DNA from: Phyllosticta citribraziliensis
Taxonomy: Eukaryota
Direction: 5' to 3'
NCBI RefSeq assembly: GCF_038025025.1
Contig: NW_027117340.1
Location: 1,426,001-1,490,000, forward strand
DNA length: 64,000 nt
The translations under genes and the position numbers were made by a program. Shown one piece after another: positions 28,655 through 52,011 of this stretch. The notes under the pieces are model-generated. The model saw only the letters and a list, made by a program, of their open reading frames with translations, did no database searches and was not told the DNA's origin. Every line of letters begins with the position of its first letter. The stretch's first letter is position 1.

Positions 28655-31600
28655 ATGTCGAACCTCCACTTTGCGGCGTCGAGCGCGCCGCTCAAGAGCA
28701 TCCAGGAAATCCAATTCGGACTCATGGCGCCAGATGAGATTCAAAACATGAGCGTAGCTCACATCATCTACCCTGAGACCATGGTACTTTCTCAGCGTGT
28801 CCTCAACCTGTGCGGTCTGGATGTTGCTGACGCACGCCTGTAGGATGAGCAAAAGCAACGGCCTCGCGAGGGTGGTTTGAACGACCCCAAGCTCGGCTCC
28901 ATCGACCGCGGCATGCACTGTGCCTCTTGCGGCGAGAACATGCAAGAGTGCCCTGGTCATTTTGGCCACATCGAGCTGGTCACCCCAGTGTTCCACGTCG
29001 GTATGTTGTCTCTTCTGCTGTCAAGTCCGCATCAAAAATGCTGACAAGACCAGGCTTCATCAACAAGATCAAAAAGCTGCTGGAGTGCGTTTGTCACAAC
29101 TGTGGCAAAATTCTTGCAGATGAGGTTAGTCACCCGCATGGGGTGGCTGTTCTGTGAGCATGGCAGTGCTGACAAACGCTCAGAGCGACCAACATTTCAA
29201 GGATGCATTGCGCTTGCGTGATCCCAAGAAGCGCTTCGAGGCCATCTGGAAAGTTTGCAAGCCGAAGCTAGCATGTGCAGTAGACTCTCCGAGCGAAGAC
29301 GGAGACCCGAAGAAGGCGCCCAAAGTCCAGCATGGCGGCTGCGGAAACCGTCAACCCGAGATTCGCAAGGACGGATTGAAGCTCATGGGCACATGGAAGC
29401 CCCAGAAGAACGAAGAGGAAGAAGAGGGCCGCCAGCCGGAGAAGAGGCCCATCAAGCCGCAGGATGCGATGAATATCTTCAAGCTCATCAGCGACGAAGC
29501 GCTATCTGTCCTGGGATTGAACGTCGAATTTGCCCGCCCAGAATGGATGATCCTCAGTGTCCTTCCGGTCCCCCCTCCGCCAGTCCGGCCTAGCATTTCG
29601 GTAGACGGAACGGGCCAAGGCATGCGTGGCGAGGATGACTTGACCTACAAGCTTGCGGACATCGTTCGTTCCAACGGCCAGATCAAGTCCTCTATAGAGA
29701 ACGGCGCCGCGCAACACGTGCTGAACGATTACGAGGACCTTTTGCAATGGCACGTTGCAACCTACCTGGACAATGACATTGCAGGCCAACCGAAAGCCCA
29801 GCAAAAATCCGGCAGGCCTCTTAAGACCCTGCGTGGCCGTCTGAAAGGAAAAGATGGCCGTCTGCGTGGTAACCTGATGGGCAAGCGTGTCGACTTTTCG
29901 GCACGTACCGTCATTACGGGTGACCCCAACCTTTCTTTGGACGAGGTCGGTGTTCCGCGCAGTATTGCGCGCACTCTTTCCTATCCGGAGACGGTGACGC
30001 CGTACAACATTGCCAAGCTTCACCAGCTCGTGAAGAACGGACCGGACGAGCACCCCGGTGCTAAGTACATCATCCGTGACGACGGATCTCGCATCGACTT
30101 GCGCCACCACAAGCGCGCCGGTGAGATCCAGCTGGCGTACGGTTGGAAGGTAGAGCGCCACATCGTGGATGGTGATTTCATCATCTTCAACCGTCAGCCC
30201 TCGCTGCACAAGGAGTCCATGATGGGTCACCGCGTTCGCGTGATGCCTTATTCCACCTTCCGCCTCAACCTGTCGGTCACCTCCCCCTACAATGCCGATT
30301 TTGACGGCGACGAAATGAACTTGCACGTTCCTCAATCAGAAGAAACTCGTGCTGAGATCATGAACCTTTGCATGGTCCCGCTCAACATTGTCTCCCCTCA
30401 GCGAAACGGCCCTCTTATGGGAATTGTTCAAGACACACTCTGCGGTATCTACAAGATATGCAACCGAGACATATTCCTTACCAAGGACCAGGTCATGAAC
30501 ATTCTCATGTGGGTGCCGGACTGGGATGGTGTCATTCCACAGCCGGCCATTGTCAAGCCCCGTCCCCGCTGGACCGGCAAGCAAATCATCAGCTTGGCGC
30601 TTCCAGAAATCAACTTGGTCAAGCCGGCTAAGAGCCACGCACCCATTGACGACAACGGCGTCGTTGTCATTGGTGGCGAGCTGATGTACGGACTTTTCAA
30701 CAAAAAGATCGTTGGCGCAAGTAGTGGTGGCATCATCCACACCATCTACAACGAAAAGGGGTGGGAGACGGCCGTCAACTTCTTCAATGCTGCCCAAAGA
30801 ATCGTCAACTACTGGTTGCTGCAGACCGGCTTCAGTATCGGCATCGGTGATACGATCCCTGATGCCGTCACCACCGACCACATCCAAGATGCGATTAACA
30901 AGCAAAAGGAAGAGGTCGAGGCAGTCACTGCATTGGCAACTCAAGACAAGCTGGACCCTCTGCCCGGTATGACCAAGCGTGAGACTTTCGAAAGCAAGGT
31001 CTCGGTGTTTTTGAACAAGGCTCGTGATGACGCTGGTGCCGTCACCGCGCAGAGTGTCAACACTTGCAACAACGCGATTGCAATGGCCAACTCTGGTTCC
31101 AAGGGTTCGACAATCAACATTTCTCAAATGACGGCTTTGGTCGGTCAGCAGTCGGTCGAGGGCAAGCGCATTCCGTTCGGCTTCAAGTACCGCACTCTCC
31201 CGCACTTTACCAAGGACGATTACTCCCCCGCTGCCCGTGGCTTCGTTCAAAACTCGTACCTGCGCGGTCTGACTCCTACGGAGTTCTTCTTCCACGCCAT
31301 GGCTGGTCGTGAGGGTCTGATTGATACCGCTGTCAAGACGGCCGAGACTGGCTACATTCAGCGCCGTCTGGTCAAGGCTCTTGAAGACGTCATGACCAAG
31401 TACGACGGCACGGTGCGCAACTCTCTCGGCGACATTGTACAGTTTGTCTACGGAGAGGATGGTCTGGACGGAATTGCCATTGAGAAGCAAGCTTGCGACT
31501 TTGTTGCCTGTTCTGATGGCCAGTTTGAGCGCCGATTCTTCATCAACGTCATGGACCCATCCACGTCGCTGTCAAGCGATGTCTTGGAGCAGGCTGACGC

Positions 31601-34156
31601 CATTGCTGGTGACGTCGAAGTTCAACGTATGCTTGACGAGGAATACGCTCAGCTCGAGGCCGACCGAAAGTTTGTGCGCACCGTTACCAACGAAGCAGAC
31701 GATCAGCGCCAGCTGCCGCTGAACATTTCTCGCATCATCGAGACGGCAAAGAGCAAGTTCAGGATCAAGGACGGCTCGCGCAGCGACTTGCACCCCTCGG
31801 AAGTCATTCCCAAGGTTCGCGAGGTCCTCGACCGTTTGATCATCGTTCGCGGCGAGGATGACCTTTCTCAGGAAGCCCAGGACAACGCCACCCTTCTCTT
31901 CAAGGCTCAACTTCGCTCCAAGCTGGCTTTCAAGCGGGTCGTGCGCGAGTATTCTCTGAACAAGCTGGCCTTTGAGAACGTCCTCGGTGACCTCGAGAAT
32001 CGCTTCAACAGAGCCATTGTGAGCCCTGGCGAAATGGTTGGTGTCTTGGCTGCGCAGTCTATTGGTGAACCCGCCACCCAAATGACGCTCAACACGTTCC
32101 ATTTTGCTGGTGTCTCTTCCAAGAACGTTACTCTCGGTGTTCCTCGTCTGAAGGAAATTCTCAACGTGGCCAAGAACATCAAGACGCCATCGATGAAAGT
32201 CTTCACCCAGTCTCCCCTCGACCTGGACGACGATTCCAAGCAGAAGGAGGCGAAGTTGCTCCGAAGCCGTATCGAGCACACGACGCTTCGATCGGTCACA
32301 GAGTGTGTCGAGATTTACTACGACCCCGACATTCAGTCGACTGTCATCGAGGCTGATCAGGACATGGTCGAGTCTTACTTCATCATTCCCGATGACTCGG
32401 CCGACGACATTGACAGCCAGTCCAAGTGGCTTATGCGTGTCGTCCTCAACCGTGGTCGGCTGCTGGACAAGGGCCTGACTGTCCCCGAGGTCGCGAGCAG
32501 GATCAAGGAGGAGTACCACCGGAACTTGGCTGTCATCTTCTCCGACAACAACGCTGAAGAGCTTGTTATCCGTGTCCGTCTTATCAAGCACGACAACAAG
32601 GATGACGAATCTGAGGAACAGGACGAAGCCCTGCTTAAAATGCTTGAGACGAGACTTCTCGACGACCTCTCCCTCCGTGGTGTCCCTGGAATCGAGCGTG
32701 CCTTCATCAACCACGGCCAAAGACAGACGGTCAAGGAGGATGGTGCTCTTGCGTGGGAGAAGAACAACGATTGTATGGAGTGGTTCCTTGAAACCACCGG
32801 CACTGCGCTGTCTCGTGTGCTCCCCGTCGACGGCGTCGATTCTTCTCGGACGTATTCCAACAACTTTTTCGAGATTATCCAGGTCTTTGGCATCGAAGCC
32901 ACCAGAGCTGCTCTGCTCAAGGAGCTGACCCAGGTCTTGGCGTTTGACGGTTCGTATGTCAATCATCGTCACTTGGCACTCCTTGTGGATGTCATGACCT
33001 CTAGGGGCATGATCATGGCCGTCACTCGCCACGGTATCAACCGAGCTGATACTGGTGCTCTCATGCGTTGTTCGTTCGAGGAGACTGTCGAAATTCTTCT
33101 CGAGGCTGCGGCTTGTGGTGAGCTCGACGACTGCCGCGGTGTCTCTGAAAACATCATGCTTGGCCAGCTTGCTCCTGCAGGCACTGGAGAGATGGACGTC
33201 TTTGTGGACAGGAACATGCTCAACACCTGCACGTCGGACAACTCTCGATTTGGCCTCATGCCTGGCATGGCCGCTGCTGCTAGCTATGTCGATGCAGGTG
33301 CTGCCACACCGTACGACTTGGGCTCGCCATCGCACGAGGCCAACTATGCTGGCCCAGACTACGGCGCCTCCTTCTCGCCCATGGTTCAGGCAGGCCAAGA
33401 CGACAGCGGTGGCTTTACGCAGTATGGGCCGTCTTTCGAGGGAGGCTTCAGTCCGTATGCCGGTGGCCGCAGTCCGGGCTACGTGCCTACCAGTCCCTTC
33501 AGTGGCACCAGCCCAACATCGCCTGGCTATTCCCCAACGTCGCCTGGCTACTCGCCTACTTCGCCTGGCATGGCTCTTACAAGCCCTCGCTTCGGTCCAA
33601 CCTCTCCTGGTTTCTCCCCGACGAGTCCGGCGTATTCTCCCACATCGCCTGGCTACTCGCCGACGTCGCCCGCGTATGGCGCGTCTCCTACTTCGCCGAG
33701 CTACTCTCCCACTTCGCCTTCGTACTCGCCGACCTCCCCCACCTCCCCTACTTCACCGGCGTACTCTCCTACGTCGCCGAGCTACAGCCCAACTTCGCCG
33801 GCGCATGCAACCTCGCCCAAGTACAGCCCGACGTCGCCGGCTTACTCGCCAACTTCGCCCATGTACTCACCCACGAGCCCGCAATTCGGTAGTGGCAGTG
33901 ACAGGCGCTCGCCAACGTCGCCCATGTCGTACAGCCCAACGAGCCCGGTCTACAGCCCTACCAGTCCGGCTCAGGACCAGTACTCGCCGACGAGCCCAAG
34001 GTTCTCGCCGACCAGTCCGGCGAATGCTCCTTACAGCGCCACATCCCCCAAGTACAGCCCAACGAGCCCCAAGTATAGCCCTACGTAAGTGCATTCCAAG
34101 GAACCAACACAATGCCACATTGCTCACAAGCTGCTAGGTCTCCTCGACAGGACTAA
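28655..34156 (+). CDS. RPB1: RNA polymerase II largest subunit. Introns 28784-28843, 29001-29053, 29125-29183, 34085-34137
   Basis: [47 protein letters not shown], bridge helix [15 protein letters not shown], trigger loop [12 protein letters not shown] and YSPTSP heptads. The last intron gives the end ...SPT|SPRQD*. Confidence 0.99.
33479..34084 (+). repeat. RPB1 CTD heptapeptide repeat region (degenerate)
   Basis: Tandem YSPTSP[G/A/S/K/M/V/R] units interrupted by spacers. Confidence 0.9.
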
Positions 34157-34977
34157 GCTTCATGGCTCTCAGCGAGTGTGCCCTTGATTGGATCGACCTC
34201 GCGTTTCCTTCCTCTTTGGCATGTTTTACTACGCGAACAATTGCATGAAAAGTGGCTTCCTCGAATTGGAAGCTTTTGATAGTCGTCAGGTTCCTGGTTC
34301 TTCAGAGACCGTCCATAATATTCCTTGCGACGGTGTTGAGGTGTTCTGGGACGGATCTCTGCTTTGGGTGCTCTTTCAAATTTTCCCTTTCTTCAAACCA
34401 AGTGGTTTTCCACGTTGCATGAGGCCTGGCGTCGCCCAGCTTAAATTGAAACGATTCCCACAAGGGCATGGCGGTGGATGAGCGGCTCTGAATTTGTTGT
34501 TCGGCAAGACGGGGTTTCAGCGTCAGGCAGAGGCAGGCGGAAGGAATGATGATCTGGGGGACGGATGGAATGGAATGCCAAATGGTCGAGAGGTAGAAAA
34601 GCCGCTAAAACTGATATTCTCAAGGACACCGTGTTTGAGCTTCGGCGCTCGAATGGTAGACTTGAAGAGCGAAAATCAGAAAAGACTTTGGTCACCAAGA
34701 ACTTCTCATGATTGTGATGTCCTGTTGAGATGTGAACGATCCCATAGTGGGTATCGAAATAAGTGAGACGATGTTCACTGCCATCGTTGCGCGTAGGGAG
34801 CAGTCCAGCTAGGCCCAAGGGGCTTATTTTCGACACGCCGCGGTGACCTGACTGTTGTGTGCTGCAGGAGTGCGTCGGCGGCTGGCGTCGCTCGGGCCTG
34901 AGTCAAAGCTTCAACGGCCACGACAAAACCTTGCAACTACATGGCTGACTTGCAACCGCAACAACCACACTTTCGCA

Positions 34978-36311
34978 ATGGCGAATTCAAAGTACAGAAT
35001 CTCCTCTTCATGACCGGAGTGTAAGCTCATCAAAATCCCAGGTACGAATACGTCAAGGCGTTTGAGCGGTGCCAGCCAGACATTCTTCTGCCAAACACAT
35101 GGGTCGTGATCCGCATCGATGGACGCGGCTTCCACAAGTGAGCTTATCCGAACCTCATCCCATCCGATCAACAGACCATGCGACCACGCTGCACTTTCTC
35201 TTTGGCACCTATCATCCCGCGCCTCCGAAGTAGACTCTCACAGTCGAAAAACTTCATCACCAAAATGGCGACACTAACCACAGGCTCCCCACCTCCAGGC
35301 TGACAGCCAAATACAACTTCTCCAAGCCCAATGACCGGCGCGCACTGGACCTGATGAATGAAGCGGGCGCGAGCGTCATGCGCGAGCTACCTGACCTGAT
35401 CTTGGCCTACGGCATCAGCGACGAGTACAGCTTTGTGTTCCACAAGGACTGCAACTTGTTTGAGCGGCGCGCCGCCAAGCTCGTGACGACGGTCGCGACG
35501 ACGTTCACATCGTACTTTGTCCATCTGTGGTCAAAGCACTTTCCCGACAAGGAGCTGACGCCGCCGATGCCAAGTTTTGATGGAAGAGCCGTCATGTATC
35601 CGAGTGTGGGCAATCTGAGGGATTATGTCAGTTGGAGACAGGTGGATTGTACGTCGGTCTTTCATACCGTTCTTGTCTTTTGCTGGATTTCTTGCATTCG
35701 ATCTCTGTTTTCTCTTTCATCCTTTCGAGCAGAGAGAATGTGGCAAGCAAAACTCCTGACTTCTTCTAGGCCACATCAACAACCTGTACAACACCACATT
35801 CTGGACGCTCATCAACCGTGGCGGCATGTCTGCCACAGCCGCCGAGCAGCGCCTTTCCGGCACCGTCAGCGCCGATAAAAACGAGATTCTATTTAAGGAG
35901 TTCGGTATCAACTACAACAACGAGCACGACTTGTACAAGAAGGGCACCGTGCTGTACCGCGATTATGAACTCGAAGAGTCAAGTCCCTCCTCCGTAACCG
36001 CAGAAGCATCATCGTCTTCAGGTCTGAATCCTACTGAGGATTACTCGGCAACTCCGAATGCCCAAATCGCACCGAGCATGGCCTCGGCAGACGCAGCAAT
36101 TGCAGTCGTCTCAAAGACGCAAGCGGAGAAAGAGAAGAAGAAGAGAGCCAAGGTTGGCGTCAAGATTGAGCACGTGGATGTCATCAAGGATGATTTTTGG
36201 CAGCGAAGACCGTGGATATTGTCTGGAAGAGCAGGAAAGTTGAAGGACGAGGTGGCAAAGGCGAAAAAGGTGGAGCAGCCTAAGGGGCCCTTTCCTGGCG
36301 GGTTCATTTAG
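34978..36311 (+). CDS. THG1: tRNA(His) guanylyltransferase. Introns 34992-35041, 35138-35298, 35649-35769
   Basis: [78 protein letters not shown] and [10 protein letters not shown]. Confidence 0.95.
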
Positions 36312-37327
36312 CATGTCTCATGGCGTTGGAAATGGGGTGAGTTGTTTTGTTGTGACTTCGCTCAGTTTCCCCAATTGACTTGAACCAGGCAGCATATTTC
36401 TTTCAAGTAGGATTCAGCACTACGAGACTATTTCCAAATTCGAACAGCGCCGGTCCTACTCTCACACACCCATGGCCTTTGTCTCAATTTACAAGAATTG
36501 CTCATTTCGCTGCTTGATGCCACTGACATGCGGCATCAAACGGGCCTGAGGACACATCTGGGACAGTATCCAACCTGGTAGTTGAGTTCTCCCGGAGTGG
36601 GTCGACGGCATTTCTTCTCGCAGTACCTCCTAATGTACGTCTTGCTGTGGCCACACGAGGTCCACACGATCGTATTGTACACACACATGTTGGCTGATTT
36701 GTCGTTATGTTGCTGATGTTAATGAGGTACAACTCCCACAGGCTTGAGGAACAGATTCCTCGGGTACAAAACTTGGATGCCGAGAGAATTCGAAGCTGTT
36801 ATGAAGGATTTGATGGAGGAAGGGTTTGCTCTTCGGCGGTGGTGAGGATTGGGGTTTTTTACCTCCAATCTGTCTAACAGAACAGGTTCGCACATGCACA
36901 ATGCAGATACCATGGCATTCTGTCAATCTGCCAGCACATGTGCCATGAACATCCTTCCTTTGTGCCTACCTCACCTATTTGTAGGAATTTTCCCGAGACT
37001 TAGCCTACCCCGGATTTTCCACGTATACAGCCACAATCATCACAACACCTGTACGCAGTGGCTTGCAAGGAAACTTCAACCATGACAAAATCGTCGACTT
37101 GGCTACGTAACTGTGTAAGTAGAGGACAAAGGCAGAAGTCAACGTGCTGACAGACTGATTCTCTCGTGGCAAACCCAGGACATTGCAACGAATGGACTTG
37201 ATTCAAAACACAAACGCTTCACCAACTTTATGAACGATCTCGCACCACCCTCTCTCCGACTCTCCTCTTCGCCACTCTTCCAAAAACTTCGCTTCCGCTC
37301 TCCTACGCGCCAGCAAAATCCACTTTT

Positions 37328-37829
37328 CTACCACCCATTCCTCCTCGCCTCCTCCGCGACAAACTTCCTTCCAGCCTTGGCCGTCCCACTGCCCCACTCC
37401 TCAACGCTAAACAACTCAAACATGCCCAACTTCCTCAGAAGCGGCAGGCTGAGGCGCATCTCGTCCTGAATCTTCTCCATCTTCTCCTGCGCGGTCGCAG
37501 GATCCAGCTGGCCAGCCGCCGCAGCGTCGGCCGTCTCATCGTACGCCTTGAGATTGTACAGGAAGGCTGCAACGGTACCCGTGGGTACGCGCTCGCCGGA
37601 AGCTAGCGTAATGACGTGGAAGCTTTGGCCGGGTGGGAGCAGCTTGTTGTTGACGGCCAGTACGCCGGGCTCGTCAATGGGCGCGGTCTGGGCCGCCTGT
37701 GAACGCCATGGCGTGAGCAAGCAACGAATGTCACCAGTTTGGAGCGTGCTCTGGTCTTTTGTATGGGGCTGGAATGGGGAGAGGGCTTACGTGAGCGGCG
37801 GCAACTTCGTGGTCGACTTGGGAGGCCAT
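37328..37829 (-). CDS. Small conserved hypothetical protein (about 135 aa). Intron 37790-37697
   Basis: AAAATGGCC start; GTAAGC...CAG intron in phase 0. Motifs LASGERVPTGTVAAFLYNLKAYD and LPLLRKLGMFELFSVEEW..G...GR resemble an uncharacterised fungal family. Confidence 0.75.
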
Positions 37830-39143
37830 TTTGCGGATGATGGTGTTATATGGTGTTCGAGGTTTGTTTTTCCCTTCTTTCTTTGAGTTTGAAGTATGCT
37901 GTTGACTCAACTGACTGGATGCTTCCGGTTTAATATACAGATGTCGCTCCCGCAGAGTCCAGTGTTGCGTTGGGGCCGAAATGGCCGAGCGCCGTGTCGG
38001 GTAATATCTCGGTCTCGACGGCGAGTTTGGACAACGACGCCCCTTCTCCGGCATTTATCAACATGGCGTGAGAGGGCCTTTTCCGAGACAGACTCGGAGT
38101 CATTTAATTGGAGGTGAAAGGCCTGGAATCTTGTAGGAGTCCTATAAACGTCGAAAAAGAAGTCCAAGGAACTGACTTTTTCCTGCGTCACCAACGAGCA
38201 GAACAATTCAACCCCCTTTTCAGTCAAAATATCTCTTGTCATTCTATCCACGATGAAGGACGGACTCACAGATGTCGTTCCCCTTGTTGCCGAGCTCTTT
38301 GATGGCGCGGTGTCGCAACCTCTCAACCTCGTCAAACTCGTTCTGCACTTCGCAATCGTCGTCGGCGTCCAGTACCAGCCTCCGCAGTACCGCACCGCTG
38401 TCTGAGCTAATGCGGAGCTTATTGACCAGAAAGAGAAGCCTGCAGTCAGGTGTGGAAGCGAGCTTGATGTACTGGAATCTACGACCAACCGTCTACGGAA
38501 GACTGTTTTGCTCTACTTTACGCTGGATTCGCCGCAACGAGACTTTTACGAGAGAGCTGTCGAATCGTCATCAATTAAATGTGGGCGGTGTGGTGGGTGT
38601 CGAAGACGCAATGCCTTCTTGCGCTGCGGCGACAGCTGGAAAACATCCATTCACCATCGCGGATGTCCCGGATGAAGCTAAAGACCTGCCATTCGCCGCT
38701 CCGGCCAGACGCGAGAGGTATCATGTTTTACGGCATCCATTCTGGCGGGTCCCAGACCAGCTCACTCTCATGGGCCACGAAAAGTCTACAACACAGCATT
38801 CGCTTGGCCAGAACGTTCGGATTACCAGTCTACGTCTTTGCCGCTGGCCCAATTGAGTCAGTACTCTGGACTTTGATACCCAAGCTGACCATAAAGTCTG
38901 GACTAACGGCTCTAGCAGACTCGGTTGCTCGGTCTCCTGGTGTTGCTATTCGCCTCTCTTGTTAGAAGCGGCGTATACCCACCATGTACATACTTCGAAT
39001 GTGACGTCGAACAAGAGGATGAAGGGAAAAGTCGTCTATCTATGACCTATCAGGTTGTGATAACAACAGAGAAGGTTTGGACTGAGTTCAAGCCCACAGG
39101 TATAAATTCGCGCACATGTGATAGCTGTCACTCACCGTCGACA

Positions 39144-39154
39144 TATAAATATAA
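39144..39154 (+). promoter_or_regulatory. Putative TATA box upstream of the Gag-like ORF
   Basis: TATAAATATAA followed by a pyrimidine-rich stretch. Positional inference only. Confidence 0.35.
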
Positions 39155-39475
39155 GCTTCTGCTCCCCCGCACCATGCCTTTTTCCAGCCTTTAGAAGTGA
39201 TAGCCAGACCATTGGCGTGGCCTTGCAATGTTCAAGCAACAACTCCCTGCAGTACTACTTTCAGTCTACAGACCCGAAAGGTTGGAGACCGTATCCCCCT
39301 GAGTTTTACCCCTGCAAATCTGATTGATTAAAGCGTGTCGGACAGGATGGCATTCGCGTATCCCCCAAATTACATGCCCCCGGCTCAGACTGCAGATGCT
39401 GCGATCCAACGATATTTTGGGGACCCCTGCGAGAGAAACGAAATGATGCGCCTGATAAACGAACTAGCTGCGTGA

Positions 39476-40147
39476 GAATTTGGAGACGATTTCGGGCCCA
39501 GGCCTCAAGATCAAAGGAGCCAGGTTTTCAAGTTCAACGGCGACCGCCGCCGATACAACGAGTGGAAGGCCGGCTTCATGGCAAAGATTGCGCACAGCCC
39601 AAACCAATTCAAGAGCGAGAAAAGCAAGCTCCGCCTGCTGATGTCGAGCGTCAGCGGCCTCGCGTTCGACGTGCTCAACAAGACCTACGGCGACGAAGCG
39701 CGCGACGATGCGGGACCCGGGACCCTCCGCCTCGAGGACGCTCTTGCTGAGCTCGAGTTCACCTTCCGCTGCTTGGAGCACGAGGACGCAACCCTACAGC
39801 TCCTCAAGCTGCGCATGGGGAAGGACCAGCTTTTTGCCGATTTCTTCCCGCACTTCATGGCGCTCGTCAACCGCGGAGCTCGCACCTGCCACGGAGCCTG
39901 CGAGGACGACCGAAGCAAGAAGCTCGCCTTGCAAGCTTGTCTCCCGGCGCGCTTCGGCAACATCGCGAAGAAATACGTCACCGAAGACCACGGTTCCTTC
40001 AAGGAGTTCGTCGACGAATGCTTTGCCTCGGAGGGCTGGAAAAAGTCCCCTGAACCGCCGAAAGCCGACACCACCATGTGTGAAGACGACGTTGTCTGTG
40101 TTTCGGAGGATGGTTATGGTACGCGTGCCTCCTCGGAGGAAATGTAA
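39476..40147 (+). CDS. Solitary retrotransposon Gag capsid-like protein (Ty3/gypsy type); 5' structure uncertain
   Basis: Open frame from 39476: VFKFNGDRRRYNEWKAGFMAKI...FKSEKSKL...SVSGLAFDVL...LAELEFTF...ATLQLLKLRMGKDQLFADFFPHFMALV...DDRSKKLALQACL...SFKEFVDEC. This follows the motif spacing of fungal gypsy Gag capsids. Strong G/C third-position bias. Confidence 0.65.
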   Translation, partial: EFGDDFGPRPQDQRSQVFKFNGDRRRYNEWKAGFMAKIAHSPNQFKSEKSKLRLLMSSVSGLAFDVLNKTYGDEARDDAGPGTLRLEDALAELEFTFRCLEHEDATLQLLKLRMGKDQLFADFFPHFMALVNRGARTCHGACEDDRSKKLALQACLPARFGNIAKKYVTEDHGSFKEFVDECFASEGWKKSPEPPKADTTMCEDDVVCVSEDGYGTRASSEEM

Positions 40148-40836
40148 GTGCGAGCGTGAGGAAATTCCGGGTGCTCTGGGTCCAATCGCACCGCGTCGGA
40201 ACATGAAGAAAGAATTCAGGTTGAACGGAGTTGAGTGAGGGTTCAAGAAAAGTTTCTTACACGACACTCATTTCACATCCCCATCTTTCATGTATCCACG
40301 GTCACTCTCTCAAAGGTTTGGTGTTGGGTGTCCGGTGTAGTCAGAAATTGACAAGATTTCAATGTGAGGGTCCAGGCTTGCATGCGATGCACCTCTCGTC
40401 GTGACATGATCGAATCCCAATCTCCTTGTACCAACTTGTGATCGAGTTGCAAGCATGGGGTAAGAGTCCATCATCTCTCTGAAGAACAGTTGCCTCTGAC
40501 ATGACTAACATGACCAGGACCGAGTGCGTACGGCAGACTCTGTGACGTAGACACTGTGACTTGCAGCTCCTCCAAACATCTATCCGATTTGACATGAAGT
40601 GCAAGCTCGAGATGTCCAAGAGAATTGAAGAGACAATGTATACTCGGTGTTCTGCTGCTTCAGGCTGATTTGCAGCGAGCACCGTTCCAGCGCCTGGTCC
40701 CCAAGACGGATTCAACGTGCGCCCACGCTCCAGCGCCTTCCTCGACCTGGCTGCGGGCGCAACGTCTTTCCCAATGCGTCAGCAGGCGCTGAGCAGGCGC
40801 TGAATCAGCCGAAGCGCACGAGCCACGGCAGGACAG

Positions 40837-40843
40837 TATAAAG
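40837..40843 (+). promoter_or_regulatory. Putative TATA box plus CT-rich element upstream of the 41.2-kb gene
   Basis: TATAAAG followed by tcgtcttcctcttcttcttcttcttctctc. Confidence 0.4.
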
Positions 40844-41252
40844 GCTTCGCGTCTCGCGCCTCGTCTTCCTCTTCTTCTTCTTCTTCTCTCCACACTTACC
40901 TTGCTGGGTCGGCCGCGCTCAAGCCTGCGGTCCGGCTGCTGGGACGCCCTGCATTGCACACCGCGGAGGCTGCCTGGCATGAAGCTCCTTCGGGGGCTCC
41001 ACCGGCGGAATTTTTGCTACTCGCCTGCTTCGTTGCGGGTCTTTGCTTTTTTCATTGACGCTTTTCGCCTTGCGCGGGACGTTGGGGATGATTGCTGAGC
41101 CGGGCGTGGATGGCGGCTTTGTCCTTGTCGTTTGTGCTGTTCTGCTGTCTTCCAGTCACCTCTGCTTCGCTGATTGCTGTGTACTAAAGGCGTTGCCAGG
41201 AATGATGAATGCTTCTTTCACAAACCACCCTCTTCTCTCGTTTTCTCTCGTC

Positions 41253-41792
41253 ATGCCTGTCTTCAGCACTCCAGCGTGGGCTTCGCTCGCCTCGTCCGTC
41301 GTCAAGGCCAAGAAGTTCATCAAGAGAGCGTGTCGCGAGATGGCAGCAAAGATTCGAGCTGTCGATTGGAACCAGATGCCTCACGACATTTGGAACTGGA
41401 TCAAGACTCACAAGTACGAGCTCGTCTTCGGCGTGCTGTGCCCCAAGCCCATCTACCTCGCGCTCCGCCCGCTGCTCACCATGGCGGGCATCGACACGGA
41501 CATGCTCTTCCACGACACCGAGGTCTGGATCAAGCAGCACCCGTGGCAAGCAACTCTTCTGTTCGCCTGCACTGCCGCCCTCTGCGTCGCGCTCTTCGCC
41601 AACTCTTCCGGAATCCTCGCCGGCATTCTCGCTGCGAGCGCGGCTGCTGCCGGTAGGTTCTCTTTTCTACCGCGCTCCAGACGTGTCGACCTACTGACGC
41701 GTGCTTTCGACAGGCTCCATGCTTGGTCTGGCGCTCTACATTCACTTCTCGTCTGCTGGCCAAAACGACCAGCCCCACTGCCATGCCCTCTG
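41253..41792 (+). CDS. Hypothetical membrane protein resembling the N-terminal half of fungal IFI27/ISG12-like proteins. Intron 41653-41712
   Basis: GC3-biased codons; two similar segments, DIWNWIKTHKYELVF and DTEVWIKQHPWQATLLF; hydrophobic helix; GTAGGT...ACTGAC...CAG intron. Confidence 0.5.
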
Positions 41793-41893
41793 ACAGTCGC
41801 AACGCCCCACGATACCCTTGTTGCGCTGCCTCTTCCCTCCACGACGAAACGAACACGAAACGACGCAACCGCTACCTCTCTCGCGCTTACAAC

Positions 41894-42150
41894 ATGGTCT
41901 TCTTTCTCGTTGGCCCTCTGCTTGGCCTTGCGGGCTTCGGCGCTGGCGGCATCGTAGCCGGTGAGCGGACAAAGGCTCTCCATGTCCACTCAACCTTCAC
42001 TGACAAACGCGTCGTTCTGGCTCACTGGCTGCCGCCATGCAGTTTTTCTTCGGATACGTCCCTGTCGGCGGTGTCTTTGCCATCTTCCAAAGTGCGGCCA
42101 TGGGCGGATACGGCGGCGCTGTACTGGGGCGTGTTTTCGGTTTCCTATGA
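41894..42150 (+). CDS. Small IFI6/IFI27 (ISG12)-like Gly/Ala-rich membrane protein, about 65 aa. Intron 41961-42019 has a non-canonical 3' end; possibly a pseudogene
   Basis: MVFFLVGPLLGLAGFGAGGIVA|GSLAAAMQFFFGYVPVGGVFAIFQSAAMGGYGG matches the GFxxxGIxAGSxAA...FAxxQSxxMGG pattern of the ISG12 motif. Confidence 0.6.
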
Positions 42151-42456
42151 GACTCTGTCTTTGTTTCCGCGACCTACTACGGTGTTGAGCTGGCTCTGCA
42201 AAGTCAACTTTGTACAGGAGGGACTAGGACAAACGCTTCCGACATCTGAATCAACTCTTCCGGGTCAAAGTTGTGCAATATCATGTCGCTCGCGCCGTCT
42301 GAGAATTCGCATACGTTCCACATGGCCAAATCTCTGCTCGCTTTCCGGTGATGGCATGCGAAGGGGGAAGGGAAAGGTAGTACAGGGAGGATTGAAAGAT
42401 CTTGAATCTTGTCAGAGCGCAACGAAGGTTGGTAATCTCTCTGCGGACAGAACCGC

Positions 42457-45159
42457 TCAAAGCCTTTTCTTCCGAGCCAACTCCTCGTGTGCATATCCAG
42501 GATTGCTGTGAGGCTCGCCAAGTCTCCCAGCGTAAAGCTCGTTCGGTATGACCGTGTCGACATGGCCAGCCGACAGACCAGCATGCCGCCAAGCGCCCTT
42601 CATTTCGGATGGAGGCGTCCTCGTCACTGTGAGTGCTCACGTTAGCAACAGAAGAGCATTCAATGCAGAGTACGCAAGCGCGTGACCGAGAAGCCATTGA
42701 GAATGGGCCAAGATGAGTAGATGAAAGACTCACAGTCACCCCACATGATGCCCTCGACGGGGAAATCGGCCAGTTCGCTGACTGCCGAGCAAACGGCACG
42801 CATCGAGCCAAACATCTGCGGAATGTATCCCTCACGACTGTAGGTAAAAGCCCACCAACAGGCAGTCGTCATGCCGAGCATGAGGACACAGGAGCCCCAG
42901 AGCGCAGACGGCACCGTGACGACCTGGGTACGAGGTCAAAACTAGACTCACGCTGGGCCTGGGAAGAGACGCACCTGGTATGTTGAATCTGCACGCAACG
43001 CACTCTCCAGGACTATCTCGTCAGCATAGATGGCCAAGCCAAGCAGCCAATGCATGGTCGTGCTATAGACGGCAATGGGCAGCATTATTTTTGCGGGCAT
43101 CTGGAGCAGATACGACTGCTCGAAGCCTTCGCTCTTGACAATGGTGCAGCGCAACCGCCTGCGCCCCTTTTCAAAATTCCCCCACTCGTACTCCATGCAA
43201 ATGAGCGAGATGTTGTACAGGAGCAGCAGGTACAGCATCGAGTATATGAGCTGCGCGCCGTTGGACGTCGCAAATGCCGAGATCTCAGCGCCCAGTCCTG
43301 GTCTCATCGTGCCGCCAAATTGTGCGAGCATTAGCGGTCGTGTCGACGCTTTGGCTGGCGTGATCAAGCCGGCGCAGAAGGCAAGCGAGTAGTTTGCTCC
43401 AAAGACCATCCCAACGAAGATGGAGCCCGCCACCATGCCGGTCGAGGTGAAGGACAGGGTAAGCATCTGTGTGACGGCCGTCTGGCCGAAGTTGGCAATC
43501 AGGCTCTTCTTGCTTTTCGTCGCCAAGGTCGGCCAGGGAAGATTCGGCATGTTGTTGACGCTGTTGAACTTTTTGCACTTTTGGCAGTGACCGATCTCGT
43601 CGCCCGTGGCTGAAATTGCAATGTCCTTGCGGCAGTGCTTGTGGCAAGTGTGGGAGACCGTCCGCCGGTGGAAGTCGCCGCCGTTGACGAGACACTTGCC
43701 TGGTATGCGAATGTCCTCCAGAACGGCCGCAACTACGACGTCCCCAAACGTCAGGCAGTGCGACTTGACCTTGGACTGAGACCGAAGGTTGGTGACGACC
43801 ATGTAGAGGGCTTTGGCCGAGATGCAGGCGGCCAAAATGACGGCTGCGAGCAGTCTGACGACTAACTTGTGCGTCCCGCAAGATTTCCCCCATTCCACAG
43901 CCCAGCCAAAATCGGACCCAGTGCATCGGTCTTTGATTGGAATCCCGCTACAATCGATAGCACCGGGTGTGTTCATGTGTTGGTAACAAGGCGACAAGAA
44001 GGATTCTGACTCTGCCTCTTGACGATCATTGAGCGTTCCAAATAGAGCCCCACAGGCGTTTTCGTCGTAGCGCACACGTTCTATCCAGGAATAAAAGCAA
44101 CTGTCTCCAGTTTCGCTGTAAGGATTGGGTTCAACATCCAAAGCGGTCTGATTTAGCGCCCCGCAGTAGCCGGCATAGGAAACATCGATGGAATAGGAGC
44201 CAAACGTCACCAGGGCGACGTGTTCCGGATTCATTTTTGCGCCCATTCGGAAAGCTCTCCACAAGTCATGGTCTCCAGTGTAAGTCTTGTATTGAGTACC
44301 GTTGAAGTCTCCGGTAGTTCCATTGCGTTGGTCAAGGCCAACACTTGTTGGCGTATAGTCCATATCTCCTGGATAATAGGCGACTCCTACGACGGAATTG
44401 GCGAGAAGATGGACTGGCTATAGGCGTGTTAGACTTGAGCCAGGAATAATCGAGACCATAGTGGATTTTGCTCTTCCGAATACCACCGCCGCACCCGGGG
44501 AGCTGTCACTTCTTCTAATCCCTACTTCGAGGCACGACATACCGTGGACGTAGCTATCAGAAAGATCCACGCGCACCAAGCCTTCGCACGGCCAGACTTC
44601 TTGTGTTTGATCGCAAACGGAGAGTTGGTACCAACGCGGGAATCCCCAAAATGCGTCAGGACATATCTAATATCCTCGATCTTCAACGACGTCAACAACT
44701 GCTGGTACGTGTTGGATGCGCTCAGAATGACGGTCGCAGCAATGTTGATGATGAATTTGATGCCCTACGTGTGCTTAGTCCTTTTTGTCAGCCACAAAGG
44801 ACAGACAAAGATAAACTTACTTCGCACAAGCTCTTCATCTTTGCCTCGTCGCCCGAGGCAATGGGAATAGACGTCGTCGAAGAATGCCACCCGATTCTCT
44901 TGTTGAATTTCGGCGTCAAGGCGATGCATATGATAACCAAGATGACCGCCAACCAGACTATCGTAGCGGTCATTATCATCAGAGACCTATCGACGAGCAT
45001 CTGGCCCTGCCACCATGAGTTCCCCGGACGGGTCGACTGGTGTGCGTTTTCCAGTAAGACAGTGTTGGGAAGACCGTACGGATTGGAGTCCGGTTTCTTG
45101 TGCTCTTCTGCTGGAACCTCGACGGCAGACTCTACGGCGGGGTACTTCGCTTGTGTCAT
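42457..45159 (-). CDS. DUF6536-like multi-pass fungal membrane protein. Introns 44820-44765, 44542-44418, 42974-42924, 42734-42628
   Basis: Spliced product contains FIINIAATVILSASNTYQQLL, VGTNSP, ST|PVHLLANS, CLTFGDVV, SNGAQLIYS, QSYLLQMP, MHWLL, IMWGD and RHAGLS. Four canonical introns keep the frame. Confidence 0.75.
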
Positions 45160-47504: not shown

Positions 47505-48643
47505 GTCTGAGTGCTGCTGCTGGCGGCTATTGGGACGTCTCCTGGACAGGCGAGAGCGCGGGCGCGACGGAGTAGGGAGGCAAGATGTTGGAATGCAGCT
47601 CGAGGTGTGGGTTGAGAAGGTGATTTCGTCCGCAGTCGGCGCGTGATACATCTGCGCCGACTCGGCCATCCGTTCCCCTCTTTGCGAAGGGTCCTCCATT
47701 TTCACTTTTAGTTCCGCGTCGCATGGATGTGCGAGGTAACTTTGGTCGTCGTCGACCCGTACCTGGCACTTTGACTTTTGGGCTTTTGGGGGCGATGCCT
47801 GTTTTAATCGAGCCATCCCCGCCATGACCCTTTAGCCCCGGAGCTTATTGGAAGTCCGCCTCGCAGGTGTTGGAACTGCGGCCGTGTGGAGCTAACTCCG
47901 CCAGCCGTTTCACATGCACTGCTCAATCAATCCCCGTCAGACGTCTCTTCAACGGCTACTGGCGCTCTGCTTCTCTGGCCGGTTGGAAGCATTCGGATCC
48001 CAAGCTGAGGGAATGTGCTCGGAGGTCGGAAGAGGTGGAAAGCAGCAGCCCGCGACTCGCCCTCACCCAATTGCATCGTATCCAGCTGGGAAGTTTGGAA
48101 CGAGCCCACCACTTTGCATATTCTGCGACCTTAGCCAGTTACGATTCTAGAATTCATGCGCGACTGGCAGAGTCTTGAGACGCGAAAAAGACCCTGCTAG
48201 CCGCTACTCAAGTCGGACCAGGCTCAAGTGCAGGCTTACGTGCCGTGGCACAGGGCGGTGGCTGGCGGCACCCAAGTAAGCTTAATACCGCGAGCATGGT
48301 TTTTTTCCATTTTCTTGTCCACGCCCATTGGTCCATGCGTTCCACCGTTGGATTCGGGCGATCGATCACTTTAGGCCTTCAACGTGGTATCCAGGATATT
48401 GAAGCGGGTGATAGATGGCTAGATCGATTCCTGGACGGGAGACGTCATAAGGAAGGCGATTGGCATCTCCAAAGAAAACTCCTTTAAATGGCACCCCTTG
48501 TGCCCAACCCCTCGGTGAGCTCAACCCCTGGCATTGTTAGCTTGTCAGAATAAGCGACGATGGAAAAGTGCCAAATCTTCTCTGAATGACTTGCGATGGA
48601 ATTTTCTACATCCGCTCTTGTTTTCTTTTTTATCCAACCTCTT

Positions 48644-51600
48644 CTAAATCTTAAACTTCTCAAGGTACTTCCTGGCTTCCTCAACGCCATCGTCGACCTT
48701 TTCCGGGTTTGTGCCTTGCCCGACGGCCGTCTTGCCCTTACCACCAGCCTTGCCACCGATAATGGTGGAAACGGCCTTGGCCCAGTCGGCAGCAGAGGCA
48801 CCTTGGGATTCAAAGTGCTGTAAACAGTCAGCAGGTGCACTGCACATGACCGGAAACGACGAAACAGAGGACAGCCTGTGCTCAGACGGCATAATGGGAC
48901 CAAGTCGCTTACCTCTCCAATGTAGCAACCGTGCGCAACCTTGCCCTCCTTCTCATCGCCGGCCACCAGGTAGACCGACTTGTCCTTCTCCTTTGAACTG
49001 ACGTACTTAATGGCCTCAGTGATGGCCTTGCTTGTGTGCTGGTTGTAGTCGAGACGCTGGACGAAAAACTTGCTCTCCTTGTTGGCAGCAAAGTAATTCT
49101 TCACTGCATCCAGCACCTTTTGGTTCTCGGCCTTGCTGGCCTTCTTCTGCTCGTCGAGGATGCCCTTGGCGACAGCGGCGACACGGCGACGGAACTTTTC
49201 CTTTTCAAGAAGCGGGATGGTGAGTTCGTTGAGACGGGTCTGGATGCTCTTGGCGGCGACCTCCTTGTCAGACGAGAATGACATCTTTTCGAGAGAGGCG
49301 ATTTCGGCGGAAAAGTCGTTCGCCACGCGCTGCACGTCGTAGGCACCTTGGCCAGTGACGGCAATAATGCGGCGGATACCCTTTGCAATACCACCCTCCT
49401 CCAAAACGACGAGTTCCTTGATCTCGCCCGTCGACGCAACGTGGGTACCGCCGCAAAACTCAATAGAGAGCTTCTCCCATTCGGCATTGTCGGGATCCTT
49501 CATTATGTCGGAAACGGGCACACCAATTGAAACGACGCGCACGGGGTCCGGGTACTTTTCGCCGAAAATGGCACGCACACCGCGAATCTTGTAAGCATCT
49601 GCGAGGGCAAGGGGCTCAATGTAGACGCTGCGATTCTCGCGAATGTAAGCGTTGGAGACGGTTTCGATCTTTTCGACTTGCTGCTCCGTTACGCCCGTCT
49701 TGTGCGAAAAGTCAAAACGCAGCTTTTCAGGGGCAACGAGAGAACCCTTTTGATCAATCTCCCATCCCAAGGTTTCACGCAACGCGTAGTTGAGGACGTG
49801 GGTACCAGTGTGGTTGTTGCGGATGGGGTGACGGCGGAGCTCGTCGTACTCGCAGAGGACCTCGTCATCAACCGAGATGGCTCCGTACGATAAGTAGCCG
49901 GTGTGGAAGACGTAGCCGTTGGAAACCTGAACATTCTGGACATCGAAAGCGGCCTCGTTCGCGCCCTCAATCATAATCTTGCCAGTGTCAAATTCTTGAC
50001 CACCCTGTTCAGCGTAAAAGTTGGTCTTGTCTAGAATAAGACCGAACTGCTCGCCCTCGGCCAACTCGGAGGTGCTCTTGATGAACTTCTTCTCGGGGTG
50101 GAAGATGGCCTTGACGTGGGCGGTAATATCATCCCGACCATACTTGTAGTCGTCTTCGGTTGGGGTGACCTTCATCTCTTGGAGAGCTCCAATTGCATGC
50201 ACGTCGAGCTTGACCAGGTTTGCACCAGCCTTCTTGGCGCCTTTGCTGGCTTCCTTTGCCTTGGCCTGCGCCGCCCTCACTTCAGCATCGTCAATGGTGA
50301 GACCGCGCTCCTCGGCCATGATAAGGGTCAGATCCTCGGGGAAACCATATGTGTCGTATAACCTCCAGACATCGGCACCAGAGAGCTTCTTGGTACCAGC
50401 CTGTTCGCACTGCTTGGCATACCTGTCAAACATAACCTCACCGCGGTCCAAGCTCTTTGCAAAGGCCTGCTCTTCTTCATCCAGAATCTCCTTGACATCA
50501 TTCTCCTTCTTCTTGATCTCAGGGAACATGTCGCCAACCTGCGCGACCAGCGTGGGGACAATCTTGGAAAAGAAGTTCCCAATGTCGGTATTGAGGTACT
50601 TGCGAGCGTAACGCGCACCTCTCCTGAGCACTCTGCGCACAACGTAGCCACGACCAACAGCGTCCGGAATGGCACCATCGGAAATGGCGAAGGTCAGGAG
50701 ACGGACGTGATCCGCAACGACGCGGTATGCGGTGTCAATGCCATCTGGATCCTCATCACCAAACTTGCCCTTGTACTCTCTAACACCCGTGATCTCCTGA
50801 ATCGTCTTGAAGAGCGGAGTAAAGACGTCCGTGTCGTAGTTGGACATTTTGTCTTGCAGGATGGAAACCAAACGCTCAAAACCCAAGCCAGTGTCCACGT
50901 GCTTTTGAGGCAGCGACCTCAAAGACCTGTCCGGTTCGCGGTTGTACTGGATGAAAACGTTGTTCCAGATCTCCAACACGTTGGGGTCGTCCATGTTGAC
51001 AAGATGGGCAGCATTTCTGCCGCCGATCCTGTCGTAGTGGATCTCTGAGCAAGGACCGCAAGGGCCCTGGTCTCCCATCTCCCAAAAGTTGTCTTTGGCA
51101 TTGCCCGTAAGAATGTGGTCATCGGGTACGCCAACCGCCTTCCAGTAGTCTCTGGCCTCGGTGTCCGGCTCCAGACCCAGCTTCGCGTCGCCCTCAAAGT
51201 ATGTCACGTACAGGCGGTCGGGCTCCAGGCCAAAGACCTTGGTCAGCAGCTCCCACGAGTACTGAATGGCCTCCTTCTTGAAGTAGTCGCCAAAGCTCCA
51301 GTTGCCCAACATCTCGAAAAACGTGTGGTGGTAGCTGTCCTTGCCAACGTCGTCGAGGTCATTGTGCTTTCCTCCGGCGCGAATGCACTTTTGCGAGTTG
51401 ACGGCGCGCTTCAGCGTGGCAAAATCCGAATTCGGGTCGACGGTGCCAAGGAAAATGGACTTGTACTGGTTCATGCCGGCATTGGTGAAGAGCAGAGTCG
51501 GGTCGGACAAAGGAACGACGCTCGAAGAGGGCACGAAGGTGTGGCCATTTTGCTTGAAGTAGTCGAGAAAGGTGGAGCGGACCTTGGAAGCAGGCCAGGT

Positions 51601-51864
51601 GGGATGCTGGTCGGCGACGGAGGCCATGGTGCGGTGCAACGCCGCGGAGAGCAGCAGAGGCGCTGGGCGAGGGCGAGGGCTGGGGCGAGGATAGCCGGTG
51701 GAGCGGCCTAGGAGGCTGGGCGCAGCGCGAGTAGAGACGGTGGAGTGTGTGGAGGCACAGGTGGTTGTGGTGGTGTTGCTAGGAATTTGTAGAAGCTTCG
51801 AGCGGGACTTCAGCGAGGTCAAATATCGACCGTGACTCACGGCGCCGACTCTGCAACGCAGCAT
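48644..51864 (-). CDS. ALA1: Alanyl-tRNA synthetase with a putative mitochondrial presequence; second ATG at 51627. Intron 48912-48818
   Basis: [60 protein letters not shown], editing motifs NHTGTH and EFCGGTH, and C-terminal GGKAGGK. Confidence 0.98.
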
Positions 51865-52011
51865 GCACTCGGTTGAAGTCGACGATTAAAGGATCCGGCG
51901 TTGCGCGAAATGCACTAGGGCCCGCGGCTTTCTTTGACGACGCGAATTCGATCTCGGCTCCAAGCTTTTTGTCGCCGCGAATGAAGTTGAATGGTTTGTG
52001 ATGGCCGCAGA

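Follow-up and report, generated by a model that had tools for sequence, protein, structure and literature searches.

The stretch of Phyllosticta citribraziliensis DNA analysed here (contig NW_027117340.1, positions 1,426,001 to 1,490,000, a total of 64 kb, below called the window, in whose own coordinates all positions are given) carries on its + strand a gene for the capsid portion of a retrotransposon Gag protein. P. citribraziliensis is a citrus endophyte of the Dothideomycetes, order Botryosphaeriales. We observed that the gene is real, solitary and expressed, that it is a capsid-only gag gene, and that it is present in a single copy within the window; it is probably a lone gag remnant that has been retained by the host. 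The elements of its reading frame are the following.

39347..39475, + strand: short upstream frame of 42 codons that shares its frame with the capsid open reading frame (ORF) and is closed by the TGA at 39473-39475.
39476..40147, + strand: capsid ORF, 223 codons from stop to stop, then TAA.
39578..39580, + strand: first ATG within the capsid ORF, at residue 35, with T at -3 (weak context).

An earlier examination of the same DNA by its letters (the original prediction) had quoted the frame 39476-40147 (+) as FKFNGDRRRYNEWK..., and it reads as quoted there, with 223 open codons. The start proposed at the same time, at 39347, needs correction: with A at -3 and G at +4 the context of this ATG is good, and the in-frame TGA at 39473-39475 severs it from the capsid domain. 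The translation of the capsid ORF is 100% identical to P0001, which is 'uncharacterized protein J3D65DRAFT_665655' of P. citribraziliensis (300 amino acids, aa). The public model for P0001 excises the TGA with a 45-nucleotide (nt) GT..AG intron (39472-39516), and adds a 45-residue first exon at 38253-38387. The ATG at 39347 reaches the capsid frame only if this 45-nt intron is removed; the next ATG is that of residue 35, and the gene model from the sister species P. citrichinensis (P0002) begins at the same Met. (The name of the sister species is spelled P. citrichinensis or P. citrichinaensis; these are the same species.) Translation would accordingly begin either at ATG 39347, following removal of the 45-nt intron, or at ATG 39578. 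In alignments, the upstream frame terminates in ...MMRLINELAA, which is similar to the closing stretch of the coiled coil found ahead of the domain in relatives.

Predicted fold of the encoded protein

We modelled the 223-residue protein with AlphaFold2, using as input an alignment (A2) of the window protein and eleven homologues. The model had a mean predicted local distance difference test (pLDDT) value of 81.3 and a predicted template modelling score of 0.62, with 132 of the 223 residues at 90 or above, and consists of two helical lobes (approximately residues 18-99 and 100-190) followed by a disordered tail (190-223). The corresponding features are listed here.

39527..39772, + strand: capsid N-lobe, residues 18-99, with a short strand and helices at 24-40, 48-57, 61-71, 73-79 and 86-98.
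39773..40045, + strand: capsid C-lobe, residues 100-190, with helices at 102-111, 120-132, 145-155, 158-169 and 175-185.
39815..39856, + strand: MGKDQLFADFFPHF, residues 114-127, at the C-lobe start; the most strongly conserved motif of the family.
40046..40144, + strand: disordered acidic tail of 33 residues, with pLDDT below 50 at 190-214 and 216-220, and nothing found by Pfam.

In a structure search that is independent of Foldseek and that covered 48,161 chains, 34 chains had a Z score of at least 5 and all 34 were Gag or capsid chains, with Copia, dArc1/2, PEG10, Drt2, Ty3, PNMA2, Arc and HIV among the retroelement and retroviral capsids represented; the first unrelated row stood at Z 5.0. 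Each lobe could be fitted separately. Residues 23-106 of the model matched the N-terminal domain of the Ty3 capsid (6r22) with Z 8.1, a root-mean-square deviation (rmsd) of 3.5 and 74/74 positions aligned, and the N-lobe matched the Arc N-lobe at Z 6.7-6.9. Residues 100-190 matched the dArc2 C-lobe (6sie) with Z 9.7, rmsd 2.7 and 80/84 positions aligned, and the same lobe matched the C-terminal domain (CTD) of PEG10 (Z 9.5), Drt2 (9rxy; Z 9.4, rmsd 2.8, 83 aligned) and the CTD of MLV (Z 9.3). Over the whole chain the Copia capsid gave Z 10.9 with rmsd 10.0 over 145 aligned positions, and the other full-length matches were dArc1 (Z 9.1) and PNMA2 (Z 7.4-7.8). Foldseek against the PDB placed dArc1, Copia, PNMA2 and dArc2 capsids in its first 8 rows (probability 0.92-1.00), with no row at E<=0.001; its whole-chain rmsd values of 10-15 Å are expected, because the two lobes are on a hinge. 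A fold search of BFVD likewise gave no row at E<=0.001, and its top rows, a caulimovirid coat and retroviral Gag (E 0.007-0.1), do not separate the superfamilies. Middling Z scores are common for helical models, and the weight of the fold evidence is in the capsid-only match list and in the separate fit of each lobe. Modelling and fold search had been named in the original prediction as the means of finding a two-lobe capsid, and such a fold was found by both. By this model, the protein is a retrotransposon-type capsid with both of its lobes.

The family motif has the consensus MGxxExFAxFxPKF in our alignments, with F120 and F127 invariant and F123 and K126 nearly so. The window sequence has Q at position 118, where E is usual, and H at 126, where K is found in at least 90% of members. 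The motif resembles the major homology region of retroviral capsids.

Relatives of the capsid protein and type of Gag

A phmmer search of 1.84 billion representatives detected 15 proteins at E<=1e-3, 6 of them at <=1e-10 and 2 at <=1e-30, and because such homologues are present the capsid frame is not a chance ORF. Pfam gave a less direct answer. The Retrotrans_gag family (PF03732), against which the original prediction would have had the frame checked, was not matched by the window protein at E<=10, nor was any other gag family, and Pfam found no CCHC knuckle in it. When 12 members of the family were scanned as the domain only, sub-threshold matches were observed to PF03732 in 6 of the 12 (best E 9e-5), to PNMA in 4, to Gag_p24_C in 4 and to DUF4939 in 2, and none of the 11 Pfam families listed for these members is a Copia-type gag. 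Neighbours by protein language model carry PF03732, PF16297 and PF19259, and serve as leads only. The Ty3/gypsy Gag motif spacing claimed in the original prediction is therefore borne out in part: the fold and the relatives agree with it, and the PF03732 match for the protein itself is lacking at E<=10. We consider the family to be probably of Ty3/gypsy type (the Retrotrans_gag, Arc and PNMA kind), with the superfamily not settled; we go no further because no Pfam match passes its threshold and, over the whole chain, Copia is the best structural match.

That the protein might not be a capsid at all, and might instead be a chance ORF or an unrelated helical protein, is hardly credible in light of these results. 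One could point to the lack of a Pfam gag match for the protein itself, to the Foldseek search without a row at E<=0.001, to the middling Z scores that helical models often receive, and to searches of PDB sequences that yielded no capsid: phmmer gave a single unrelated match (E 1.1), a profile of the full-length alignment A2 gave coiled-coil noise only, and a profile of a domain-only alignment (A4) gave a single unrelated match (E 1). Yet there are 15 homologues, reaching E 3.5e-14 besides the protein's own record, the relatives match four different Gag families, and all 34 chains at Z>=5 are capsids, with each lobe fitted on its own at low rmsd and no unrelated row before Z 5.0.

The relatives fall into two architectures. 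Six long forms (P0005, P0007, P0010, P0011, P0012 and P0014; 472-642 aa) have, in order, a conserved N-terminal region, a coiled-coil-like stretch, the capsid and a CX2CX4-5HX6C knuckle. Three short forms (P0003, P0004 and P0013; 231-294 aa) have a coiled-coil-like stretch and then the capsid, without a knuckle. As a separate observation, a conserved GKxxA makes up the very last residues of 5 of the 6 long relatives (P0005, P0007, P0010, P0011 and P0014, the exception being P0012); it lies a few dozen residues past the knuckle and may be a site at which the end of gag is processed or recoded.

A maximum-likelihood tree of 14 rows separated the six rows without a knuckle (the window protein, the two halves of P0002, P0003, P0004 and P0013) from the rest by a branch supported at 97/98. 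Judged from these sequences, the window gene belongs to a small unnamed fungal family and, within it, to a distinct clade without the knuckle. Because the tree has no root and the branches of P0013 and P0003 are long, it allows a single loss of the knuckle and does not prove one. Paths within the knuckle-less group reach 1.6-1.9 changes per site, with frames still open. With neither a name nor a Pfam model, the family escapes routine annotation. P0002 was left out of alignments A2 and A4, in which its tandem second domain misaligned the C-lobes, and both of its halves were restored for the tree; P0008 (4,444 aa), matched in four short stretches, and P0009 (1,222 aa), matched in twelve repeated ones, were excluded from all alignments as repeat-driven.

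The architecture of the clade bears on one possible explanation of the gene, namely that the capsid was exapted for a cellular role of its own, as Arc, PNMA and PEG10 were, forming particles or scaffolds or serving as an adaptor through the groove of the N-lobe, and with no action against retroelements. Both lobes are present and confidently modelled, the capsids matched at full length are ones that self-assemble (Copia, Z 10.9; dArc1, Z 9.1; PNMA2, Z 7.8), and the clade relatives P0003, P0004 and P0013 carry a coiled-coil-like segment before a capsid without a knuckle, an arrangement that we take to resemble mammalian Arc. In the window, however, the coiled-coil segment is cut to a short stretch before the TGA, and narrow distribution and fast divergence suit genes in conflict better than housekeeping genes. 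We think this explanation unlikely.

Transcription of the capsid frame

We aligned to positions 34500-44500 the contigs of two public runs from the same organism and from two studies (X1 and X2). The runs are unlabelled as RNA, and we take them as RNA because of their spliced joints, of which there are 12 of the GT..AG or CT..AC kind on 34500-44500, the introns of the nearby THG1 gene among them. The features of the capsid transcript are as follows.

37942..38132, + strand: 5' exon, the 191 letters of X2 to the left of joint 38132>38202; this is the leftmost extent and not necessarily the transcription start.
38133..38201, + strand: spliced GT..AG intron of 69 nt, from the X2 joint.
38202..38856, + strand: leader exon, in X1 and X2 contigs, with no Pfam match.
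38857..38918, + strand: spliced GT..AG intron of 62 nt, with its joint in both X1 and X2.
38919..39280, + strand: leader exon, in the X1 contig.
39281..39333, + strand: spliced GT..AG intron of 53 nt; the X1 joint was reported as 39276>39330, and the cut has been shifted 4 places to the right.
39472..39516, + strand: annotated GT..AG intron of 45 nt, in the public model only, where P0001 reads ...ELAA and then SQVFKFNG.
40148..40376, + strand: 3' untranslated region, to the end of the X1 contig, which continues with adapter letters.

The X1 contig is 2,020 letters long. It extends over 38265-38856, 38919-39276 and 39330-40376, and with two introns out is otherwise identical to the window; an X2 contig supplies the third intron, 38133-38201, and extends to the left as far as 37942. 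Contigs from both runs (2/2) cover the capsid ORF. Stretches with little or no cover in X2, such as 39176-39509 at depth 0.84, were not taken as absence. The capsid frame is carried on spliced + strand RNA, and transcription, which the original prediction had left to RNA data, is established by 2 runs from 2 studies with three GT..AG leader introns spliced. The long first intron of the public model (~38388-39334, by which exon 38253-38387 is joined to ~39335) conflicts with the contig introns at 38857-38918 and 39281-39333, and the 5' part of that gene model looks wrong.

The leader exon 38202..38856 is without coding periodicity, the GC content at codon positions 1, 2 and 3 being 0.50, 0.54 and 0.60, respectively, and the N-terminal regions of the long relatives found no match in the leader by tblastn. 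We considered a decayed upstream copy at 38515-38616, where P0010 and P0011 gave weak tblastn matches (E 3.6-6.8) from the start of their capsid domain; the family hidden Markov model (HMM) was negative there, and the matches are probably due to chance. At position 38025, one X2 contig has T where the window has G, possibly a strain difference or an error. Further to the right, a contig of 11,365 letters spans several genes on both strands at 40800-44418, with GT..AG and CT..AC introns together. Since introns of both strands occur in one contig, contigs in this region merge neighbouring transcripts; it may be that the long leader comes from an overlapping transcript and that the capsid has a shorter mRNA of its own.

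Solitary state of the gene and its neighbours

With all 15 proteins as queries, tblastn against the 64-kb window found one locus only, and the family HMM, which includes the window's own row, gave 1 match among 1,949 six-frame segments. Within 36.4-48.4 kb, none of the 79 stop-to-stop ORFs of at least 75 aa matched gag or the pol families protease, reverse transcriptase, ribonuclease H (RNase H) and integrase, the only matches at or above curated cut-offs being to DUF7709 and DUF6536. Between 30 and 50 kb there were no direct repeats resembling long terminal repeats (LTRs), other than the heptads of the RPB1 CTD, and no inverted repeats. Neither Pfam nor tblastn queries from the relatives that bear a knuckle found a CCHC knuckle in the window. 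GC content stays level at 0.49-0.65, and AT-rich tracts are absent. The original prediction was accurate in its statements that the frame ends without a CCHC knuckle, that protease, reverse transcriptase, RNase H, integrase and an LTR pair are absent nearby, and that AT-rich decay by repeat-induced point mutation is not seen. Its placement of the locus between THG1 and ALA1 is correct in that both genes flank the capsid gene, and incomplete in that several further genes lie between them. Within the window, the capsid gene stands alone among ordinary host genes, of which the following were located.

29130-34085: RPB1.
35.0-36.3 kb: THG1, with its stop codon at 36309-36311.
37328-37786, minus strand: DUF7709 gene.
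48484-51885, minus strand: ALA1.

Several observations concern these neighbours in their own right. A spliced 52-nt intron at 36336-36388, just past the THG1 stop codon, lies in the 3' untranslated region. In the DUF7709 gene, an intron at 37696-37789 has another exon on its right, and the + strand transcript described above (to at least 37942) is head-to-head with it, with overlap or a shared promoter region possible. The DUF6536 match (E 2.6e-8; 44525-44764) is located just upstream of a 489-codon minus-strand frame at 42951-44417, and both probably belong, as exons, to a single gene for a membrane protein.

The same results address the possibility that the gene is part of a mobile element, either a non-autonomous gag-only element or one whose pol and LTRs are unrecognisable or outside the window. 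The long relatives do look like complete Gag, having both capsid and knuckle, and the longest of them, P0014 (642 aa), is on a contig of 5,446 nt, long enough to contain a complete element. Against these points stand the lack of LTR-like repeats at 30-50 kb and of pol in 0/79 ORFs, the single copy in 64 kb, the three introns spliced from the transcript, and the lack of any relative above 1,125 aa, none of 1,125-3,210 aa being found among 7,956 candidates in what was a weak search. We regard membership in a mobile element as improbable. Other searches for relatives in their genomic setting were also unproductive: in metagenome scans, 240 pattern matches with alignment A3 and 67 with the window domain left 0 confirmed, and a search with A2 for relatives having DNA context returned P0014, P0002 and P0001 only, crowded by word matches.

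Conservation and coding signal: retained gene or transcribed relic

The GC content at third codon positions (GC3) is 0.76 over the capsid ORF and 0.83 over its core, 39515-40039, compared with 0.68 for RPB1, 0.69 for ALA1, 0.64-0.75 for THG1, 0.42-0.60 for pieces of the leader and 0.55 for 39347-39472. The G/C-ending, host-like codons reported in the original prediction were thus observed, with the GC3 of the core above the 0.64-0.75 of the neighbours. The rise in GC3 starts at ~39512, which is the 3' end of the annotated 45-nt intron, and this 45-nt segment, having GT..AG ends, an in-frame stop and no coding signal, may from its sequence be a true intron. A rarer form with the 45-nt intron spliced may exist, since contigs drop minor forms. 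The window protein keeps 7 of 7 invariant residues of the family. The near-invariant residues R24, Y27 and W30, which are upstream of Met35, are also intact, and their preservation within residues 18-34 suggests that translation included the part before Met35 until recently.

The only close relative is the P. citrichinensis model P0002 (363 aa, on 2 contigs). From Met35 onward, it is identical to the window protein at 157 of 180 positions (87%), with positives at 168 of 180 and 0 gaps; by this comparison, the frame is kept in the sister species. In P0002 the first capsid domain is followed directly by an old second copy (residues 181-363), which shares 39% identity with the first and 58% with P0004. 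A study of Phyllosticta describes the two species as each other's closest relatives and reports two sequenced strains of P. citrichinaensis (PMC9073689). The 87% identity gives no estimate of selection, because no figure for pairwise divergence of the two species was found in the literature passages. It could reflect the fast change typical of conflict genes.

The explanation that has to be weighed most seriously against a retained gene is that the frame is a relic that is still transcribed: what remained here, in the common ancestor of the two sister species, of the capsid portion of a Gag gene or of an older capsid-only paralogue, now decaying, with transcription through read-through or a bidirectional promoter and with no useful protein. 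A number of our observations weigh against retention, and several of these are in equal agreement with such a relic. With regard to the RNA, the in-frame TGA at 39473-39475 sits directly before the capsid frame, after ATG 39347, the only well-placed start, and it is kept in the RNA contig: X1 is gapless across 39330-40376, and neither of the 2 runs has a joint at the 45-nt intron. The leader is at least 1,221 nt (>=1.2 kb) with 20 upstream ATGs (22 when counted from 37913, two of them left of 37942) and without coding periodicity. The ATG within the ORF is in weak context, with T at -3, and the 189-aa product from ATG 39578 would be without the N-terminal strand and most of helix 1. Moreover, contigs cross neighbouring genes on both strands, so that cover is no proof of a dedicated mRNA. 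With regard to the protein, close relatives are just 2 among 5.8 billion clusters, both from Phyllosticta (the species itself and one other), which are described as sister species (PMC9073689); a protein divergence of 13% between species so close could indicate relaxed constraint; tblastn finds in the window no counterpart of the second tandem capsid domain of P0002, which would be a lost partner; and near-invariant or common residues are substituted in the window protein, which has H for K126, E for D101 and Q for E118. Two further points are of a different kind. All Pfam matches of family members are below curated cut-offs, the best for PF03732 being that of P0011 (21.0 bits, E 4e-4, against a cut-off of 24.1), and no related element with pol, hence no target for restriction, was found in searches that were weak.

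On the other side, points against decay are the 223 open codons, whose core GC3 of 0.83 exceeds that of the housekeeping neighbours, the 0 gaps over 180 residues relative to the orthologue, the intact residues 18-34 and a coding signal that starts exactly at the 3' end of the annotated intron, and the frames that stay open across deep divergence in the knuckle-less clade. A relic falls clearly short of an even chance in our estimate, and is nearly as likely as a kept gene that acts as a decoy, the mechanism taken up below, given the TGA kept in the RNA, the nature of the leader, the narrow distribution and the changes at near-invariant positions.

Discussion

Taken in all, we lean slightly toward exaptation, that is, toward a gene that has been kept, with retention presumably by selection. 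Within the readings of a kept gene, we favour, tentatively and at distinctly less than even odds, a capsid decoy that acts against related elements as the likeliest mechanism, because a knuckle-less, lineage-restricted and quickly diverging capsid resembles known restriction factors. Fv1 is reportedly a restriction factor of just this kind of capsid. Binding of capsid to capsid would be the likeliest mode of action: a subunit that docks onto Gag lattices yet cannot bind RNA would co-assemble with the Gag of related elements, and particle assembly would be spoiled. By analogy, this action would be of the decoy type described for Ty1 p22/p18, Drt2, Fv1 and RTL8. The capsid domain that contacts the target Gag in restriction factors is present in the window protein, whose C-lobe matches capsid CTDs at Z 9.3-9.7.

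A more elaborate version, which we hold to be doubtful, is that there is a Dothideomycete clade of capsid-only genes, Arc-like in having a coiled coil and a two-lobe capsid without a knuckle, that was domesticated from a Ty3/gypsy-type Gag, and that the Phyllosticta gene is a fast-evolving decoy in this clade, with output set by a poorly spliced, stop-bearing 45-nt intron.

Comparison with systems already described places the gene among, and apart from, several others. The nearest fungal counterparts are Drt2 and the p22/p18 proteins of Ty1 in S. cerevisiae, which like the window gene are host-resident, transcribed gag fragments without pol or LTR function. The fold of the Drt2 capsid CTD matches the C-lobe of the window protein, and the proposed binding of Drt2 to the Gag of a related element offers an analogy for the action we suggest. 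Drt2 and p22 differ in having a Ty1/Copia-type Gag origin and a C-terminal capsid domain only, whereas the window protein is two-lobed and has relatives that appear to be of Ty3/gypsy type. Co-opted gag genes are known from other fungi as well: according to Wang and Han (2021; PMC8321522), Crtg12 and Crtg13 are derived from Ty1/Copia and Crtg14 from Bel-Pao, and all three are shared above the family level (Crtg13 for about 242 Ma), tested for selection and expressed. By the same account, these are, like the window gene (single-copy within 64 kb), single-copy, expressed, gag-derived genes at fungal host loci, two of them in Dothideomycetes; the window gene differs in its apparent Ty3/gypsy type and in being known from two sister species only, and may be of separate descent from Crtg12 and Crtg13. 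The idea of a fungal domesticated capsid is accordingly less new than the original prediction implied: Crtg12-14 are in print, and so is capsid-derived restriction in fungi, in the form of yeast DRT2 (PMC10951436). In word searches of open papers we found no Ty3-type co-opted gag in filamentous fungi.

Outside the fungi, Arc, dArc1 and dArc2 share with the window protein a two-lobe capsid without a nucleocapsid knuckle, and with its clade relatives a coiled-coil-like segment before the capsid; they differ in having no detectable sequence similarity to it, and the fungal origin would be an independent one. The mammalian domesticated Ty3-type proteins PNMA2, PEG10 and RTL8 are alike in fold, and members of the fungal family have sub-threshold Pfam matches to PNMA and DUF4939; these proteins are of another lineage and came from another co-option event. 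RTL8 is described as antagonising PEG10 particles (PMC11684626), and the decoy action proposed for the window gene would follow the same logic. Lastly, Gag of Ty3/gypsy elements (PF03732) is alike in its capsid fold, in the sub-threshold matches of 6 of 12 family members and in the knuckle that the long relatives keep after the capsid, and differs in that the window protein is without a PF03732 match, knuckle, pol or LTRs and its transcript has introns.

In animals, capsid genes kept by the host have been studied extensively, Arc, PNMA, PEG10/RTL and Fv1 being examples. The fungal cases that we found in print are few, consisting of three deep Copia/Bel-Pao co-options (PMC8321522) and yeast DRT2 (PMC10951436). 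The points of interest in the present gene are its probable Ty3/gypsy-type origin, its membership in an unnamed family without a Pfam model and its stop-bearing mini-intron. Should it prove a relic, its value would be smaller, in showing how long a gag fragment stays gene-like and in correcting a public gene model. If the gene is kept, an expressed, two-lobe, knuckle-less capsid gene of Ty3/gypsy type in a filamentous ascomycete would widen the list of fungal co-options, and if there is indeed a domesticated Dothideomycete clade, it would be the first co-option of the Ty3/gypsy superfamily in fungi. The protein, at ~190-250 aa, would then be a small and tractable one for asking whether fungal genomes deploy capsid decoys against their own retroelements.

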